Assembly: GCA_030599585.1 (NCBI GenBank)
Contig: JAUVNS010000002.1
Span: 224,001-288,000 of the forward strand
DNA: 64,000 bases
Source of the DNA: Promethearchaeota archaeon
Lineage (GTDB): Archaea; Asgardarchaeota; Lokiarchaeia; Sigyniarchaeales; SOKP01
Reading direction: 5' to 3'
Positions 23,770 to 31,146 of the stretch are shown here, piece after piece; the stretch's first letter is position 1; every line of letters starts with the position of its first letter. The position numbers and the translations under genes are program-made. Under the pieces are notes generated by a model. The model did no database searches. It saw nothing but the letters and a program-made list of their open reading frames with translations, and was not told the origin of the DNA.

Positions 23770-24168
23770 TTACACACGTCTTCCGCGATGTCCGCCTTTA
23801 CGCCTACAGTGGTCGTGAGATTTCGGGGTAACTTCTTCTATTCGTCCCACTCTGAGTCCCGAGCGAGCTAATGCCCGTATACAAGCTTGAGCCCCTGGAC
23901 CGGGAGTTTGACTTTTGTTCCCACCAGGCGCTCGGACTTTGATGTGAATACCTCTTACACCTTTATCTTTTAATCCGTTAGCTACACGAAAACCACATTG
24001 CATAGCAGCGTAAGGGTTAGATTCGTCTCGGTCAGCCTTGACGACCATACCACCTGTGCATTTAGCGAACGTTTCAGCACCGCTTAAATCTGTAGCGGTA
24101 ACAATTGTGTTGTTGTAACTGCTAAAGATGTGAACGATTGCCCATTTATCTTCTTGTTGTTTGCTCAT
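23770..24168 (-). CDS. rps11: 30S ribosomal protein uS11
   Basis: [39 protein letters not shown]. Confidence 0.97.
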
Positions 24169-24180
24169 GATTAATACCTA

Positions 24181-24684
24181 TTAGGTAGATTCCTTAACTG
24201 CGGAGAGTGGACTGCTAGGAGTGTATCCTATCATGTCTTCTTCCTCTTTTTTGACGATGTAAGAAGGAGCGTTAATTTTTTTGCCACGTACTTGAATATG
24301 GCCGTGCACAACGAATTGTCGTGCTTGATAGATAGATTTAGCGTAGCCTTTCTCAAAAACAAGTGTTTGCAGTCTTCTTCTTAGTATGTCTTCGACGGTG
24401 AGTAATAGTATATCTTCGAATCTAGCGTCAGGACCTAAAATTCCGAGTTTAACTAACTTATTGATTAAAGTTTGCTGAACCTCAGCAGCTCTTTCTTGAG
24501 ACATTGTTCTGGACTGTCTCGCAAGGCTCCGCCAATTTCCGAGCGTGGTACGCATTTTCCAAAATTCGCGTTTGTTTCTAAGACCGAATTTTCCAAGAAA
24601 CTCGAGTTCTTCGGCTTGTCTTTCTTTTTCAAAGGGGCGTTTCGGTTTTTTAAATTTTTTCTTTAACCTTCTTGGATCTCCGAT
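24181..24684 (-). CDS. rps4: 30S ribosomal protein uS4 (starts at ATC 24684; ORF track truncates it)
   Basis: Frame reads (ATC)GDPRRLKKKFKKPKRPFEKER...FGLRNKREFWK then RRLQT...QARQFVVHGHI; SD AGGTGA 6 nt before ATC. Confidence 0.92.
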   Translation of the reverse strand: MGDPRRLKKKFKKPKRPFEKERQAEELEFLGKFGLRNKREFWKMRTTLGNWRSLARQSRTMSQERAAEVQQTLINKLVKLGILGPDARFEDILLLTVEDILRRRLQTLVFEKGYAKSIYQARQFVVHGHIQVRGKKINAPSYIVKKEEEDMIGYTPSSPLSAVKEST

Positions 24685-24695
24685 TTCTAATCACC

Positions 24696-25178
24696 TTACT
24701 TTTGACTTTTCAATTTTCTTCTTATAACACCTACGACTAATCCGTGTCGTCCAGTGCTTTTAGTTCTTTGACCTCGAACTTTTAGACCTCGGTGGTGTCG
24801 AACGCCTTTATAACTTCTTATGCGTTTCATTCTATCGATATCCCGTCTAACCGATAATTCGAGTCGATTTCCGATTATGTGTAAGTTCTCCCCGGTAACT
24901 AGGTCTTTTTTACGATTTAGCATCCAAACTGGGATGCCGTTCGTAATTGGATCTAATATTATTTCTTCAATTCTATTTAGGTCCTTTTCGGGAATGGCAC
25001 CAATCCTCAGATTGTCGTCTATTTTTGCGACTCTTACGATCGCTTGAGCGAATCTCCTTCCAATTCCTCTTATTTGAGTTAATCCATGCTCTACTTTTGC
25101 GTTTCCATCAACTTGAGAGCGAAGTTTACGAAAAAACACTTTTTCCCGAAAGTTGCTTGGTCTACTAGTTAAACTCAT
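24696..25178 (-). CDS. rps13: 30S ribosomal protein uS13
   Basis: IRGIGRRFA, WMLNRKKD, SYKGVRH...VRGQRTKSTGR. Confidence 0.97.
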   Translation of the reverse strand: MSLTSRPSNFREKVFFRKLRSQVDGNAKVEHGLTQIRGIGRRFAQAIVRVAKIDDNLRIGAIPEKDLNRIEEIILDPITNGIPVWMLNRKKDLVTGENLHIIGNRLELSVRRDIDRMKRIRSYKGVRHHRGLKVRGQRTKSTGRHGLVVGVIRRKLKSQK

Positions 25179-25292
25179 TTTACCGATATTACGTTTCTTA
25201 TTCTTATAATTCTTAATATGAAATTTAATATTAATTTTTTGGTTTAGAACGAAAGAAGGTTTGTTTGAGAAAAGAGAGCGGAATTTTACTAC

Positions 25293-26786
25293 TTAATATC
25301 GAGGGAATCTTAGATTTTCTTCTTTTTTTTTATCGATATGCTTCTTACATTTATTTTTTTTTATTTTAGCGATTTTTTCAAGGAGGGGCAATCCTGGTTT
25401 AACTTCAGAAAGTTCTTTTGATTCAATTAAATCGTTTTCAATAAGTTTGTTATAGAGTTCCTTTCCAACTTCAGTTCTAATGAGAACGGTATTCCACCCC
25501 GAAGGTGACCCTATAGAACCAATTGAAATATCAGCGGCTTCAGAAGTTAGGTCAAAGCAAACTTCGCAATCTTCTCGAGCTAGATGCCCAATCTCTTTAA
25601 TCGGTATGGTTAATTCGTCATTGGACTTAGTATACACAAAGAACTTCCCTTTGTTTATATCCGTTTTCCTTACATCACTGACATCAACTTTTAGAAGTTC
25701 GAAAATCTTAAGCAGAGATTCGTAAGAGAATGATTCCATACAAAAAATGCCTATGCGATATTTTATTTGATTTAATACGGGAATGTTAATGTTGTAAATA
25801 TCTGATTTGAGTAAAGCTTGCATCATGCAAGGAACCCCAACCACCGCTAAGTTAGCTTTTCTTTTATTAAGTTCACTTAAACTTTTTAAATTGGGGTTGT
25901 TTACATATTTAGTTCCCGTGGTTTGAAGAATGTCTTCTTTATTCTGTAGGATAATTGGTTCAGGTCTCCACGGAGTTTTGCTCATTTTAGCGCCTAATGC
26001 TATATCAATAATTTTAGCATCAAATAAGTAATGCAGACAGGTGCTTGTTATTCCTCCATCTTGGCAAGATTTGGCAATTTCGTCAATTTTGGTTCTTGCT
26101 GAGTAAGCTTCTAAATATTGTCCTACTTTAGGATACGTTTTAATCTGTGAGGTCCCTTCTTGAACCATGCTTAAAACACTTACAGGTAAGTAAGTACGTG
26201 GACAAACATAATAACAGAGGCCACATCTTATGCATTTTTCTTCGTCAATTTTACCGAAACCATTGAAAACATCTAAACAGTTTACCGGGCAAATACCAAC
26301 GCATAAACCGCATCCAGAACAGTTATGTGTTTCAAAAATAGTTTCGACGGGTTCATAAATTGATTTTATTTTTGAAGGATTAACATCGAAGCTTTTTATA
26401 TCAAAATCCTTAAAAGTAGTCGAAGAGGGAGTGTTTTCATCTCCTTCAACTTCGTCATAGATTTCGTTCACTACAATTAGATTCTCATTTTTCAATAACT
26501 CCAACAGACTCAATGTTTTAGTGATTTCTATAGAATTATCGCTCGAAAATTTATTTAATGCCTCAAAATCGTTAGATTTTTGACGAGTTAGAAAATTGTA
26601 AAGCTTAAATTTAATAAGTTCCTCATCAAACATTTTGAATAAAATTGCATGGTATTGTTCCTCGTTATAGACGCCAGAATCTAGTATTTCTTGTTTAGCG
26701 TCAATTAACACGCGGATTCTATACGAATCTACGGTCACGGCTATATCTTTCAAGCCTTCCTTTGTCATTTTAAGCTTAGAACTCAT
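25293..26786 (-). CDS. FrhB/FdhB-family F420-interacting flavoprotein with ferredoxin domain and ~150-aa N-terminal extension
   Basis: Two CxxCxxCxxxCP motifs, QDGG, TGTKY, VGVPC, GIFCMESF, CxxCxD...ADISIGSIGS.SGW. Confidence 0.85.
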   Translation of the reverse strand: MSSKLKMTKEGLKDIAVTVDSYRIRVLIDAKQEILDSGVYNEEQYHAILFKMFDEELIKFKLYNFLTRQKSNDFEALNKFSSDNSIEITKTLSLLELLKNENLIVVNEIYDEVEGDENTPSSTTFKDFDIKSFDVNPSKIKSIYEPVETIFETHNCSGCGLCVGICPVNCLDVFNGFGKIDEEKCIRCGLCYYVCPRTYLPVSVLSMVQEGTSQIKTYPKVGQYLEAYSARTKIDEIAKSCQDGGITSTCLHYLFDAKIIDIALGAKMSKTPWRPEPIILQNKEDILQTTGTKYVNNPNLKSLSELNKRKANLAVVGVPCMMQALLKSDIYNINIPVLNQIKYRIGIFCMESFSYESLLKIFELLKVDVSDVRKTDINKGKFFVYTKSNDELTIPIKEIGHLAREDCEVCFDLTSEAADISIGSIGSPSGWNTVLIRTEVGKELYNKLIENDLIESKELSEVKPGLPLLEKIAKIKKNKCKKHIDKKKEENLRFPRY

Positions 26787-26824
26787 TTTAGTTAAACTTT
26801 AGTTGTTTTAATTAATACTTAATT

Positions 26825-26894
26825 TCCGAATACTCTCGCTGGGAGTCAGTTACCTTCTAACTAGATTTTTTTAGAAGGATCATTCTCATTCGGA
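26825..26894 (-). promoter_or_regulatory. Candidate SECIS-like element (K-turn core) overlapping vhuD stop
   Basis: UCCGAAU/AUUCGGA outer helix; GAG-AAU-GA-U ... U-GA-CUC K-turn pattern; 8-bp CCUUCUAA/UUAGAAGG helix; A-rich apical loop. Confidence 0.55.
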
Positions 26895-27313
26895 TTAATT
26901 TTTTATTTTGGTAGAGGAGGAAGTTTTTCAACTTTACTCGTGATATCTTCTACAGATTTAATGAATTTATCAACTTCCGCTGCCGAGCAAAAATATTGTT
27001 GAATCCTTTCTTCAGCTAGACCTAGATGGCTAAATAATCTTTTTAAAAATTTAACATGGTCATAAGTATTCATGTTTCCATTTCCAAATTCGCATTCACC
27101 CTCTTTTCAATAAATGATAGCGACTCCATCAGCTCCATTTAAGAAACTCTCCATAATTAGATGAATTCCTATTCTTCCCGTACACCTAACTCGTATTAAA
27201 TGGAAATTAGTGGAATAAGATTTTCTCGTAGTACCAGTTAAATCTGCTGCTGAATAACCTCATTTTTCGCATCCAAAACCTATTATTTTTCTTTCATTTG
27301 TAATTTCTGTCAT
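26861..27313 (-). CDS. vhuD: Selenoprotein MvhD/VhuD ([2Fe-2S] hydrogenase subunit D), 150 aa, Sec18 and Sec69
   Basis: MTEITNERKIIGFGCEK-U-GYSAADLTG...IRVRCTGRI...GADGVAIIY-U-KEGECEFGNGN...ERIQQYFCSAAE; TGA at 27260-27262 and 27107-27109 occupy conserved Cys/Sec sites; absent from ORF track. Confidence 0.92.
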
Positions 27314-27334
27314 CAATTATTACACCCTTCTTTT

Positions 27335-29335
27335 TTAGTTTTCAATTATTGTTGATTCTTTTTGATTACTATCTATTTCACTCTTTCCGATTCCTTTGAT
27401 TTCAGCTTCAAATTGACGATCTCGATAATATTTAAGATCAATCGCTCTTGCTGGGCAAGATGATATGCATACTCCGCATCCTTTACATTTTAATTCATCA
27501 ACTTGAGCAATTTCATTATCATCTATGCTGATTGCCTTATATTCGCATACTTTTTCACATCTATGACATCCTAAACATAAAGTCTCATCTACTTCAGCAA
27601 TGATTAATTCTTGTATAATAGTTTTATGAGAAAGTAAAGCAGCAGCTTTGCTAGCAGCAGCTAGGGCTGTAGAAACGGAATATGGAATGTTTTTTGGTCC
27701 GGCTGCGCATCCACAAATATAAATCCCAATGTTTTTTGTTTCTTGTGGTTTCAAACAGCCATGAATTTCAGATAGAAACCCGTTTGGGCCTTTTCCTAAA
27801 CCCAATACTTCAATTGCTTCAATAGTCCCTTTTGAAGGGTTCATCCCAGTAGATAATACAACCATATCAGCTTTAATTTTCGTAAGTTCCCCAGTTAAAG
27901 AGGAATAAGCGCGTACCATTAAATTATGGTCATCATCCTCGGTCAACTCCCCAACTTTTCCCCGTATCATTCTAACATCAGCTTCTCTAATTGTTCTATA
28001 ATATTCCTCGTTGCCCTTATCAGTTGTCCTAATGTCAATATAGTATATTATAACATCCATTTCGGGATACTCTTGTTTTAGCAATTGAGCATTTTTAAGA
28101 GCAACACTGCAGCAAACAAATGAACAATAAGGATTCGCTTTTAGCGATCTAGAACCTACGCATTGTATCATCACAACTGTTTTAGGTGTTTTTCCGTCAG
28201 ATATTCTATAAATGTGTCCCCCTGTTGGACCAATTGGGCTAAGCATACTCTCTAATTCGATCTGAGTAATAATATTTGGATATATGCCATAATTGTATTC
28301 ATTTGTCTCTATAATTGGGTATTCATCGTATCCTGTAGCAACGATAACAGCCCCTACTTTAACTTCAATAATTTCGGGTTCTTGTTCAAATTCTATTGCT
28401 TCTGCAGGACAAATTCGTTCTCAATTTTTACAATCTATGCACACACTTTTATCCATAACAGCATATTTCGGGACTGCTTGAGGAAAAGGGATAAAAATTG
28501 CACCTCTTTCGCCAATTCCGCTATAAAATTCATTAGGGACATTTATAGGGCATTTTGTAGTACACAAGCCGCATCCAGTACACAATTTTTCATTCACATA
28601 CCTTGGATTTTTACGTATCGTAACGTTGTAATCTCCTGTTATACCGCTAAACTTGATAATATCGCTATAGGTGAAAAGTTCGATATTGGGATGTTTTGAA
28701 GCGTTAACCATAATGGGGGCAAGAACTCATATACCACAATCATCTGTAGGGTAGATCCTATCTAATTGGGCCATCTTACCTCCAACAGTTGGTTGTTTTT
28801 CAACTAAGTAGACTTGTATCCCATGGTCTGCTAAATCTAAAGCTGCGTTCATTCCAGCAATTCCCGCACCTATTACTAATGCCGCTCTTTCTACAGATAT
28901 CTCCTTATAAGGGATGCTTTCTAATTCCCGAGCTCTATTTATACCAGCATGAACTAATCGTTTTGCTTTTTCGGTTGCGTTTTTAATATCACCTTGATGA
29001 ACAAACGAGCAGTGCTCCCTAAGATTTACCATTTCAAAGAAGTAAGGGCTTAAACCTGCTTCCCGTAAAACTGCACGGTAAGTAGGCTCGTGAATCTTAG
29101 GAGTGCAGGCTGCTACGACTATTCGATTCAAATCAAGCTCTAGAATGTCATTTTTGATGGTTTGTTGTCCAGGATCGCTACAAGTGAAATTGTTCGTCCT
29201 AGCGATAACCACATTAGGTAACGGTTCAACAAAATCTCTAACTGCATCACAATCAAGGTGAGCTCCAATATTTACACCTCATCTACACACATAAACTCCT
29301 ATTCTTATCTTGTCAATGGTCTGTTTTTCAGACAA
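27335..29335 (-). CDS. hdrA: Selenoprotein heterodisulfide reductase subunit A, 666 aa, Sec19, Sec203 and Sec305
   Basis: One frame from TTG 29335 (SD AGGTGA) to TAA 27335, broken only by TGA at 29279-81 (RIGVYVCR-U-GVNI), 28727-29 (PTDDCGI-U-VLAP) and 28421-23 (CIDCKN-U-ERICP); FAD motif GAGIAG, VMIQCVGSR, YCSFVCC. Confidence 0.93.
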
Positions 29336-29553
29336 TTAAATCACCTTTGGTTAAAACATCACCCAAATAATAAATTGCTTCTAGTTCTATTTTTAATTTT
29401 AATAAAACCTTTTTGTGTTTGGAAATTATTGCATTAATTTATTTTTTCTGGTTAAGCTGATAAATTCTAACCAATTTTATCAATATCTTATACAAATATC
29501 TAATTATAAATCTACGAGATTTAATTCAAGATTTTAATCACATTAAGTTTTTT

Positions 29554-29763
29554 ATGGATTTTTCATTGGATCTAATTATGGTGGAGCAAGAAGAAAACAA
29601 AAAAGAAGAATTTGCTCGAGAATTTATGACCGAGGAAGGTCTGAAAGGTAAAGCAAGGAGAATAAAAATCATGACCATTATCGATAAAGTAGGATACGAT
29701 AAAGCAAAAATAAAAGTTGCTTATCTCCGGTCAACTATAACTGAAAGAATTCACCATGAATAA
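29554..29763 (+). CDS. Small hypothetical protein (likely start ATG 29578)
   Basis: Charged, protein-like ORF upstream of serS. Confidence 0.55.
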   Translation: MDFSLDLIMVEQEENKKEEFAREFMTEEGLKGKARRIKIMTIIDKVGYDKAKIKVAYLRSTITERIHHE

Positions 29764-29856
29764 TTCTTTTATTTTTTAACACGCAAAAATTATTTGCATA
29801 AATTAATTTAATGATTGTTTATAATAGAACTTAGAAATTTTATATTATAATGAGAT

Positions 29857-31146
29857 TTGACTTTGAGAGACATAGAAGATTTTAGAGCTAATATAGATGC
29901 TATCATCGAAACTGAAAAAAAAAGATTTAAAGACCCACAAAATGCCAAGAAAGTTCTAGAATTCGATATATTGTGGAGAAATGTACTCCAAGAAATTCAA
30001 GATTTAAGAAAGCAAAGAAATGACTTCTCTAACGAGATAAGTCGGTTCAAAAAATCCGGTGAGCAGGAAAAAGCTAATACTGCAATCGAAAAATCAAAAC
30101 AAGTTAAAGAAACAATCGATGAACTTGAGAAAAAAAGGATTGTGTACCTTGAGGAACGAGAAAAATTTAGATATATAATCGGAAACGACTTACACAAATC
30201 CGTTCCAATTGGAGAAACAGAGGAAAACAATGTCATTATCAGGGAATATGGTGAGATACCCATATTTGACTTTAAACCATCCTCACATGTCAACATTATT
30301 CGTGATATAGGTGGTGCTGACACAAAGAAAGCTTCTGAAGTAGTAGGATCTCGATTTTACTACTTGAGAGGTGACATAGTTTTACTTAATTTGGCACTCA
30401 TTAGATTTGCTTTAGATAAATTAATTAGTAAAGGGTATGAACCTTTATGGACACCTTTTTTCATAAAACACGAAGTAATGAAGGCTGCAGCAGAATTAGG
30501 AGATTTTGAGGAATCCCTCTATAAAATACAAGACGAGGATCTCTATATGATTGCAACTTCAGAGCAAACTCTAGCTGCTTTTCATTACGATGAAATTTTA
30601 GATCCCGATTTACTCCCTTTAAAGTATGCCGGAATATCTTCTTGCTTCAGAAGAGAAGCAGGTTCCCATGGGAAAGACACATTAGGTATATTTCGAGTAC
30701 ACCAGTTTGAAAAGGTTGAGCAATATATTTTCTGTAAACCTGAAGACTCTTGGGACATTTTTACGGAGTTAATATCGAATGCAGAAGAAATCTATAAAGA
30801 GTTAGAAATACCATTTCGAATTGTTAACATCGCATCTGGTGAATTAAATGACAACGCTGCCCAAAAATACGATTTAGAAGCGTGGTTCCCATCATCCGGC
30901 AAATATCGAGAATTAGGTTCATGTAGTAATTGTTTAGATTATCAAGCAAGGAAGTTAAAAGTACGTATAGGTAAAGTAGGTGCTACTCAAAAGAAAGAAA
31001 TAGCACATACTCTTAATTGCACTGCGATTGCTACAGAGCGTACAATTTGTTGCATTTTAGAAAATTACCAAAACCAAGATGGGACAGTTTCAATACCTAC
31101 AGTCCTTCAAAAATATATGAATGGGAAAAAAATATTAAACTCATAA
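29857..31146 (+). CDS. serS: Seryl-tRNA synthetase
   Basis: N-terminal coiled coil, ATSEQ, CFRREAGSHG, FRVHQFEKVEQ, SCSNC.DYQAR, HTLN. Confidence 0.97.
   Translation: MTLRDIEDFRANIDAIIETEKKRFKDPQNAKKVLEFDILWRNVLQEIQDLRKQRNDFSNEISRFKKSGEQEKANTAIEKSKQVKETIDELEKKRIVYLEEREKFRYIIGNDLHKSVPIGETEENNVIIREYGEIPIFDFKPSSHVNIIRDIGGADTKKASEVVGSRFYYLRGDIVLLNLALIRFALDKLISKGYEPLWTPFFIKHEVMKAAAELGDFEESLYKIQDEDLYMIATSEQTLAAFHYDEILDPDLLPLKYAGISSCFRREAGSHGKDTLGIFRVHQFEKVEQYIFCKPEDSWDIFTELISNAEEIYKELEIPFRIVNIASGELNDNAAQKYDLEAWFPSSGKYRELGSCSNCLDYQARKLKVRIGKVGATQKKEIAHTLNCTAIATERTICCILENYQNQDGTVSIPTVLQKYMNGKKILNS

Follow-up and report, generated by a model that had tools for sequence, protein, structure and literature searches.

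The window analysed here is a 64-kb stretch of DNA from a Promethearchaeota archaeon whose genome comprises 4.85 Mb at 32.6% G+C. The three genes that concern us are all encoded on the minus strand, at the following positions of the window.

27335-29335, minus strand: hdrA, 666 codons when the open reading frame is read with TGA as U, stop codon TAA
26903-27316, minus strand: vhuD (mvhD), 137 codons, stop codon TAA at 26905-26903
25293-26786, minus strand: FrhB-like gene downstream on the same strand, 497 aa, Pfam FrhB_FdhB_N/C

The identity of hdrA is given by a match to NCBIfam HdrA2 (E 5.6e-244) together with Pfam Fer4 and FAD domains, and that of vhuD by Pfam FlpD (PF02662, E 1.1e-37) and NCBIfam VhuD (E 4.4e-38). 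The reading frame of hdrA contains UGA (Sec) codons at three sites, 29281-29279, 28729-28727 and 28423-28421 (codons 19, 203 and 305), and that of vhuD at two more, 27262-27260 and 27109-27107 (codons 19 and 70). Both of the vhuD positions correspond to invariant Cys columns in an alignment with Cys-type paralogues from the same genome. The start of vhuD lies 18 nt beyond the hdrA stop, a spacer that a preliminary description of this DNA, made from the sequence alone, had put at 21 nt. The FrhB-like gene, which is possibly carried on the same transcript as hdrA and vhuD, has an N-terminal extension of ~150 aa ahead of its ferredoxin and FrhB domains, and genes for HdrBC or for hydrogenase subunits are absent from the neighbourhood of this cluster. 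In a relative 97.7% identical, one RNA-library contig extends over 26758-27013 and so takes in the end of vhuD, the entire element described below and the 5' end of the FrhB-like gene, although this is weak evidence: the metatranscriptome contigs are short pieces from relatives 88-99% alike, from which a single hdrA-vhuD transcript cannot be shown and in which gaps are meaningless.

Between vhuD and the FrhB-like gene is an RNA element of 70 nt that starts 8 nt past the vhuD TAA and ends 38 nt short of the next start codon. Its parts, read 5' to 3' on the minus strand, are listed here.

26825-26894, minus strand: the whole lokiSECIS element, 70 nt, from the P1 5' strand to the P1 3' strand
26888-26894, minus strand: P1 lower stem, 5' strand UCCGAAU, partner of 26825-26831
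26880-26886, minus strand: 5' side of the K-turn-like core, with C-stem AG (26886-26885), bulge AAU (26884-26882) and GA (26881-26880)
26871-26879, minus strand: P2 upper stem, 5' strand UCCUUCUAA, its first position a U.U mismatch with 26852
26861-26870, minus strand: apical loop AAAAAUCUAG, 10 nt, with five leading A residues and a terminal AG; the UAG within it is not a stop codon
26852-26860, minus strand: P2 upper stem, 3' strand UUAGAAGGU, placed from the alignment of family elements
26848-26851, minus strand: 3' side of the core, AA (26851-26850; GA in most relatives) followed by C-stem CU (26849-26848)
26832-26846, minus strand: P3, the 3' hairpin ACUC-CCAGCGA-GAGU, a covarying helix and the predicted third arm of the junction
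26825-26831, minus strand: P1 lower stem, 3' strand AUUCGGA, placed from conservation, covariation and RNAalifold

The RNA string quoted in the preliminary description is an exact minus-strand reading of 26894 to 26825, and four features named there can be confirmed, namely the outer stem UCCGAAU/AUUCGGA, the stem CCUUCUAA/UUAGAAGG, AUGA and a loop rich in A. That description had also let the element overlap vhuD, with a UAG stop codon of the gene in the apical loop. This placement is in error. The vhuD frame ends in ...LPPLPK-TAA at 26905-26903, and the UAG of the loop, which is in frame, follows 14 codons later. Because the in-frame TAA lies upstream, the element is entirely untranslated. 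Its layout is AUGA / UCCUUCUAA / AAAAAUCUAG / UUAGAAGGU / AA, in which the AUGA motif (26883-26880) is invariant among the family elements and the stem begins with the adjacent nucleotide, 26879. The nine positions of P2 consist of eight Watson-Crick pairs and the basal U.U, and P3 departs from the non-bulged strand 3 nt beyond the core AA, these three nucleotides being the C-stem CU and one G. When compared with shuffled sequences, neither the 116-nt spacer (z = -1.3) nor the 70 nt of the element (z = -1.8) is distinguished from chance by its single-sequence folding energy.

The element belongs to the lokiSECIS family as published and carries the AUGA_AA variant of its core. As described for Lokiarchaeota (Mariotti 2016, PMC4989117), lokiSECIS elements consist of AUGA, a 9-bp stem, an 11-nt loop and, immediately past the stem, GA or sometimes AA; the first five bases of the loop are A-rich, and its last base is an ultraconserved G that usually has an A before it. 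The elements reside near stop codons, with one copy after VhuD in HdrA-VhuD tandems (PMC4989117), and, for hdrA/frhD in Lokiarchaeia, AUGA_AA is a reported variant (Huang et al. 2024, PMC11227280). In the window, AUGA is likewise next to a nine-position stem, the loop starts A-rich and ends in AG, the [G/A]A directly 3' of the stem is AA, and the element adjoins the end of a selenoprotein gene as the single copy after vhuD for the hdrA-vhuD pair. A minor departure is the loop of 10 nt in place of 11 nt. Here the run of A residues is one base shorter, as it is in the orthologues L052-L055; among 89 elements compared, the loop is 11 nt long in 78, 12 nt in 6 and 10 nt in 5. The shorter loop and the AA core are the only unusual features of the window copy. 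The preliminary identification as a Lokiarchaeal SECIS that is eukaryote-like and of the K-turn type is upheld, with the K-turn geometry predicted from sequence.

Covariance models gave the same assignment. A model of the core (R1), built from 11 in-genome copies among which the window element is itself included, scores this element at 46.5 bits (E about 2e-8), and a full model (R2), which was built from 17 aligned elements and aligns 91 elements over their full length, scores it (L001) at 88.3 bits. R1 matches number 12 in the source genome and 4-12 per genome in the 12 genomes of the same genus first searched. They are present in 25 of 25 sampled genomes of the family, compared with 1 of 125 genomes from other families in the phylum. 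Scans with loose regular expressions had returned 193 and 266 matches per genome scan that were mostly spurious, for which reason they were dropped in favour of a strict pattern and the covariance models. A search with SECIS models, as proposed in the preliminary description, thus recovers the element with the in-genome core model but not with the SECIS families of Rfam, which were absent from the chance matches returned by an Rfam scan of 24000-31000 at E values up to 10. Standard tools likewise failed on Lokiarchaeal SECIS, according to the authors who described it (PMC4989117).

The distribution of the element in the source genome follows that of in-frame UGA codons. Exactly one R1 match is found behind each of the five UGA-containing hdrA genes; four of these matches come after a tandem vhuD, and the fifth comes directly after an hdrA gene that has no vhuD following. 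Each of the four Sec-type vhuD paralogues is then followed by the same motif, and none of the three Cys-type hdrA-vhuD pairs of this genome has an R1 match behind it. Upstream open reading frames were assigned for 10 of the 12 R1 matches: eight follow identified selenoprotein genes (hdrA-vhuD, hdrA, vhuU and prxL), and a further two follow open reading frames with in-frame UGA whose family is unassigned.

The hdrA gene without a vhuD is located on contig 20 (387124-389230, plus strand; L013:453-2564). It encodes 675 aa with two UGA codons, is 72% identical to the window HdrA, and has its own lokiSECIS 20 nt past the stop codon, beyond which the next gene lies on the opposite strand. The gene departs from the published rule under which hdrA and vhuD of Loki genomes are always paired in tandem. 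Apart from its own orthologues, the window element has no closer relative than the SECIS of this gene, and both carry AA-CUGAC.

For the comparison, 96 distinct elements were collected from 13 genomes, and 89 distinct sequences were placed in a large alignment. In a MAFFT alignment of 27 elements a second subgroup was misregistered for P1 and P3, and the seed was therefore reduced to 17 elements, whose MAFFT alignment (A3) was not fitted to any structure. A four-helix model comprising P1, a 2-bp C-stem, P2 and P3 is 90.8% paired in this alignment, compared with 25-56% when the partners are slid. P1 is 89.9% and P3 89.4% paired, P3 carries the exchanges UA/CG (9:8) and AU/UA, and RNAalifold predicts P1, P2 and P3 de novo. 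Among the 89 sequences, 90.3% of cells are paired, as against 37-46% with slid partners, and all 23 pairs covary, including 7/7 in P1 (87.4% paired), 9/9 in P2 (93.4%) and 5/5 in P3 (90.6%); these covariation counts are inflated by the relatedness of the sequences and by the fitting of the large alignment to the model. For the 72 sequences outside the model seed the values are 86.2% for P1 and 90.9% for P3. With the upper stem constrained, the minimum-energy fold is a three-way junction in 71 of 96 elements, whereas shuffled flanks yield this fold in 11-26 of 96. Given a P3 hairpin and a covarying P1 below the K-turn-like core, the element as a whole is therefore modelled as a three-way junction, and other genera of the family have the same layout.

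The core at the centre of this junction is strongly conserved. The pair that closes it, a G with the C at 26849, is GC in 84 of 86 elements and AU in the other two, and in an alignment of 11 in-genome sequences (A1) it is GC in nine, AU in one and UA in one. The dinucleotide on the 3' side is GA in 64/89 elements and AA in 25/89, and the basal pair of P2 is non-Watson-Crick in 44/89. The apical loop starts with AAAAA in 60/89 and ends with AG in 81/89. In the loop of P3, GC is found in 75 of the 89 elements, and G followed by C or U in 87. The resulting core signature is G / RAU / GA ... RA / C, with a 3-nt bulge and tandem G.A and A.R pairs. This is the standard K-turn pattern, and a kinked geometry is predicted on that basis.

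The preliminary description had drawn the lower part of the element differently. It closed the K-turn with GAG/CUC, took the 3' side of the core from a UGA located 4 nt beyond the stem, and treated ACUC/GAGU as a competing hairpin that would destroy the K-turn. Such a mutually exclusive fold could switch the SECIS off. The pairing can indeed be drawn, as GAG/CUC and CUGA occur in the window element and in its three closest orthologues, but the nearest orthologues (L052-L054) are near-identical to the window copy, and the wider family does not retain these features. In the 17 elements most closely related, pairing of GAG/CUC reaches 54.9%; the outer pair forms in 3/17, the middle pair in 8/17, and no compensatory change is seen. 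Ten of these 17 have A or U in place of the G in the proposed UGA (CUAAC or CUUAC), and the orthologue L055 (genome G011), which also has a 10-nt loop, carries GA directly after the stem with CUAAC downstream, so that the homologous core dinucleotide in the window is the AA. Furthermore, the hairpin that this architecture excludes is ~90% paired, shows compensatory changes and is found in four families. We consider the architecture very unlikely to be correct. The expectation that the fold would be conserved among relatives holds for P1, P2 and P3, which covary, but not for the GAG/CUC pairing. ACUC/GAGU is instead best read as a conserved third arm that is compatible with the canonical core.

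A comparable arrangement was found outside the family. In the Asgard families f10, f18 and f21, all 16 regions inspected downstream of Sec-type vhuD genes show the core and, after a C and a short linker, a G+C-rich hairpin; 12 of the cores were found by a simple pattern and four were read by eye. When the fold was constrained in those 12, the 3' hairpin formed in 11/12 and an enclosing lower stem in most. The loop of this hairpin is GUAAGCG in f10 and f21, and across the three families it is GUAAGCG or a related G-C-containing sequence. The main yield of the analysis is thus comparative, in that a single family supplies about 90 elements with P1 and P3 and the arrangement recurs behind Sec-type vhuD genes of three more Asgard families.

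The conserved third arm appears not to have been described before. The window element shares with the published lokiSECIS or 'type I eSECIS-like' elements (PMC4989117, PMC11227280) the core, the position after vhuD, the UAA stop of hdrA and a multi-Sec HdrA, and it differs from them in its 10-nt rather than 11-nt loop, in its AA core, and in that the 3' side of what those papers treat as an 'internal loop' is a conserved hairpin. Huang et al. (PMC11227280) define a pattern of core, upper stem and apical loop only, with an 'internal loop and lower stem' that lack conserved bases, and a 2026 review keeps their model. The 2016 paper (PMC4989117), in its main text, describes the Loki element with neither a junction nor a lower stem nor a hairpin of this kind. 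Within the accessible literature, SECIS, Asgard and 'three-way junction' were not found together, and the term 'lokiSECIS' was found only in the 2016 paper.

Several known RNA structures invite comparison. Eukaryotic SECIS elements of type I (Rfam SECIS_1, RF00031) also have an AUGA...GA K-turn-like core, unpaired apical A residues, a location in the 3'-UTR and a reach of kilobases; in contrast, the Loki element has a shorter upper helix and an extra 3' hairpin, resides in a polycistronic mRNA and gives no Rfam match. The SECIS elements of Methanococcales, which have a GAA_A bulge (the vhuD one carries AUGA/GAC), are similar in serving hdrA and vhuD from the 3'-UTR, with one element for two vhuD UGA codons. 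Their shape is different, since inspection of the 70 nt of the window element reveals no asymmetric GAA/A bulge with G-C clamps of the euryarchaeal type. With standard K-turns such as Kt-7 and box C/D, the element has in common a G-C pair in the C-stem, a 3-nt bulge, tandem sheared-type G.A and A.R pairs and an often non-Watson-Crick 3b.3n pair, although 2b.2n is A.A in the window copy and not A.G. Finally, in k-junctions such as those of the TPP riboswitch and DUF-3268, a K-turn carries a third helix on its non-bulged strand, and L7Ae does not fold these structures (PMC10573300). The third helix of the Loki element also leaves the non-bulged strand near the core, but there are 1-3 C-stem pairs between the G.A pairs and the junction, giving a K-turn-like core beside a three-way junction. 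Because of this short intervening C-stem we regard k-junctions as a topological analogue only and do not claim membership in that class.

Taken together, the data favour an explanation, to which we assign a probability of about 0.88, in which an untranslated lokiSECIS after vhuD, folded as a three-way junction with a K-turn-like core, would bring about recoding of five UGA codons. The core would form a K-turn from the G-C closing pair, the 3-nt bulge AAU, the tandem G.A and A.A pairs and then U.U, at the base of a nine-position stem capped by the 10-nt A-rich loop ending in AG. Below it, the 3' strand would form the P3 hairpin and then pair back to the 5' flank as P1. The folded element would recruit the archaeal Sec-specific elongation factor with Sec-tRNA(Sec), through a putative binding factor, to ribosomes on the mRNA, and the five UGA codons upstream in the two cistrons would be read as Sec while both genes stop at UAA. 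These codons lie 2398, 1846, 1540, 379 and 226 nt upstream of AUGA, the largest distance being in agreement with the earlier estimate of a reach of up to 2.4 kb. The preliminary description had also proposed that one SECIS serves all five codons and had called this unusual. The proposal stands as the most plausible reading, since this is the only R1 match in the operon; the qualifier does not, because one SECIS serving both genes is already published for Lokiarchaeota, where a lone lokiSECIS, according to the proposal, covers as many as six UGA codons across ~2 kb (PMC4989117). The main claim of that description, a single shared SECIS for hdrA-vhuD, is thus a re-discovery of published biology.

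The case for action across the cistron boundary is that no other element could be detected, and it is conceivable that the element acts on vhuD only, with the UGA codons of hdrA recoded by another signal or with hdrA terminated there. A covariance model of one shape is blind to unrelated signals, and one hdrA paralogue does have its own SECIS. Nevertheless, that self-equipped hdrA is the one that lacks a vhuD behind it, and in 4/4 tandem pairs the sole element follows vhuD. R1 finds only one match over the entire 64-kb window (the runner-up scoring 15.8 bits) and no second match in 25200-29600, where the next best score is 11.9 bits (E 3.5), in line with the earlier remark that hdrA showed no SECIS of its own, and a better canonical element was not found elsewhere in the operon. 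The 18-nt spacer is too short to hold an element, hdrA stops at UAA and not at UGA, as the published model expects, and RNAz found no other conserved structure (PMC4989117). We therefore judge a role confined to vhuD to be improbable. Still less credible, to the point that we scarcely entertain it, is a 3'-end structure with no part in recoding, for instance a stabilising structure, a terminator or an L7Ae site of the box C/D type. The resemblance of the K-turn signature to box C/D and the position at gene ends would suit such a function, but it does not account for the location of 8/12 R1 matches behind identified selenoprotein genes and of none behind the three Cys-type pairs, and neither a guide-like box C'/D' arrangement nor a U-tract common to the family is present. 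Recoding of the five UGA codons by the single lokiSECIS thus remains the preferred reading.

We know of no binding of archaeal EFSec to euryarchaeal SECIS elements, and the recogniser of archaeal SECIS elements is a long-standing question. P3 and its conserved loop dinucleotide provide a concrete target for pull-down, probing and mutagenesis, and the P1 and P3 architecture alters the design of Asgard SECIS search patterns and reporter constructs. We tentatively suggest, at slightly less than even odds, that the Asgard SECIS is a three-way junction whose G+C-rich P3 would be a functional determinant, for example as a docking site for a binding factor or the ribosome. This role of P3 may explain the inactivity of a Loki construct in a heterologous host. 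In the only such heterologous test, a Loki vhuU.2 SECIS had background activity in M. maripaludis (PMC11881835). The predicted minimum free energy of the construct, -6.9 kcal/mol, suggests that it comprised the minimal hairpin only.

Components for Sec synthesis and delivery were sought in the source genome. SepSecS (473 bits) and an EFSec-like factor are encoded 4 kb apart on contig 28 (12078-18306). An L7Ae-domain search of the genome returned two genes only, with no SBP2-like candidate, and SBP2 was not found in Asgard archaea in the earlier study (PMC4989117). A tRNA-Sec gene was not located in the assembly with Rfam RF01852 or ARAGORN. The best RF01852 match (30.3 bits) is in fact a tRNA-Leu, and the one tRNA-Sec call made by ARAGORN when introns were allowed is implausible, with an intron of 1245 nt. 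This search failure says little, because Loki tRNA-Sec is reported to carry an intron in the T-arm. ARAGORN identified only 18-21 tRNAs in the 4.85 Mb, a low count which suggests that many tRNA genes are intron-containing or unassembled.

The other elements of the genome lead to additional genes that may encode selenoproteins. On contig 40 (~116936-117367; L020:2136-2567), an open reading frame of 122 aa with two adjacent in-frame UGA codons (..IVHAD-U-U-ADNM..) is followed by a lokiSECIS with full P1 and P3. The UGA within the AUGA motif terminates this open reading frame, which has no Pfam match and is a candidate for a new selenoprotein with a Sec-Sec pair. Another open reading frame without a Pfam match, on contig 34 (~226586-226847; L019:2301-2562), precedes a lokiSECIS and has 63 aa, one predicted membrane helix and the C-terminal sequence GGG-U-PSTC, making its product a candidate small membrane selenoprotein. 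Similar elements reside behind short open reading frames of unassigned family on contig 21 (L014) and contig 26 (L016). Contig 26 also carries the twelfth R1 match (110505-110550, plus strand), which is weaker at 38.5 bits and was missed by the strict pattern. Elsewhere on this contig (~120325-120910; L017:442-1027), a Prx-like (AhpC/TSA) gene with a U-x-x-U motif (AW-U-HY-U) is followed by a lokiSECIS, in agreement with the two-Sec PrxL described in 2016.
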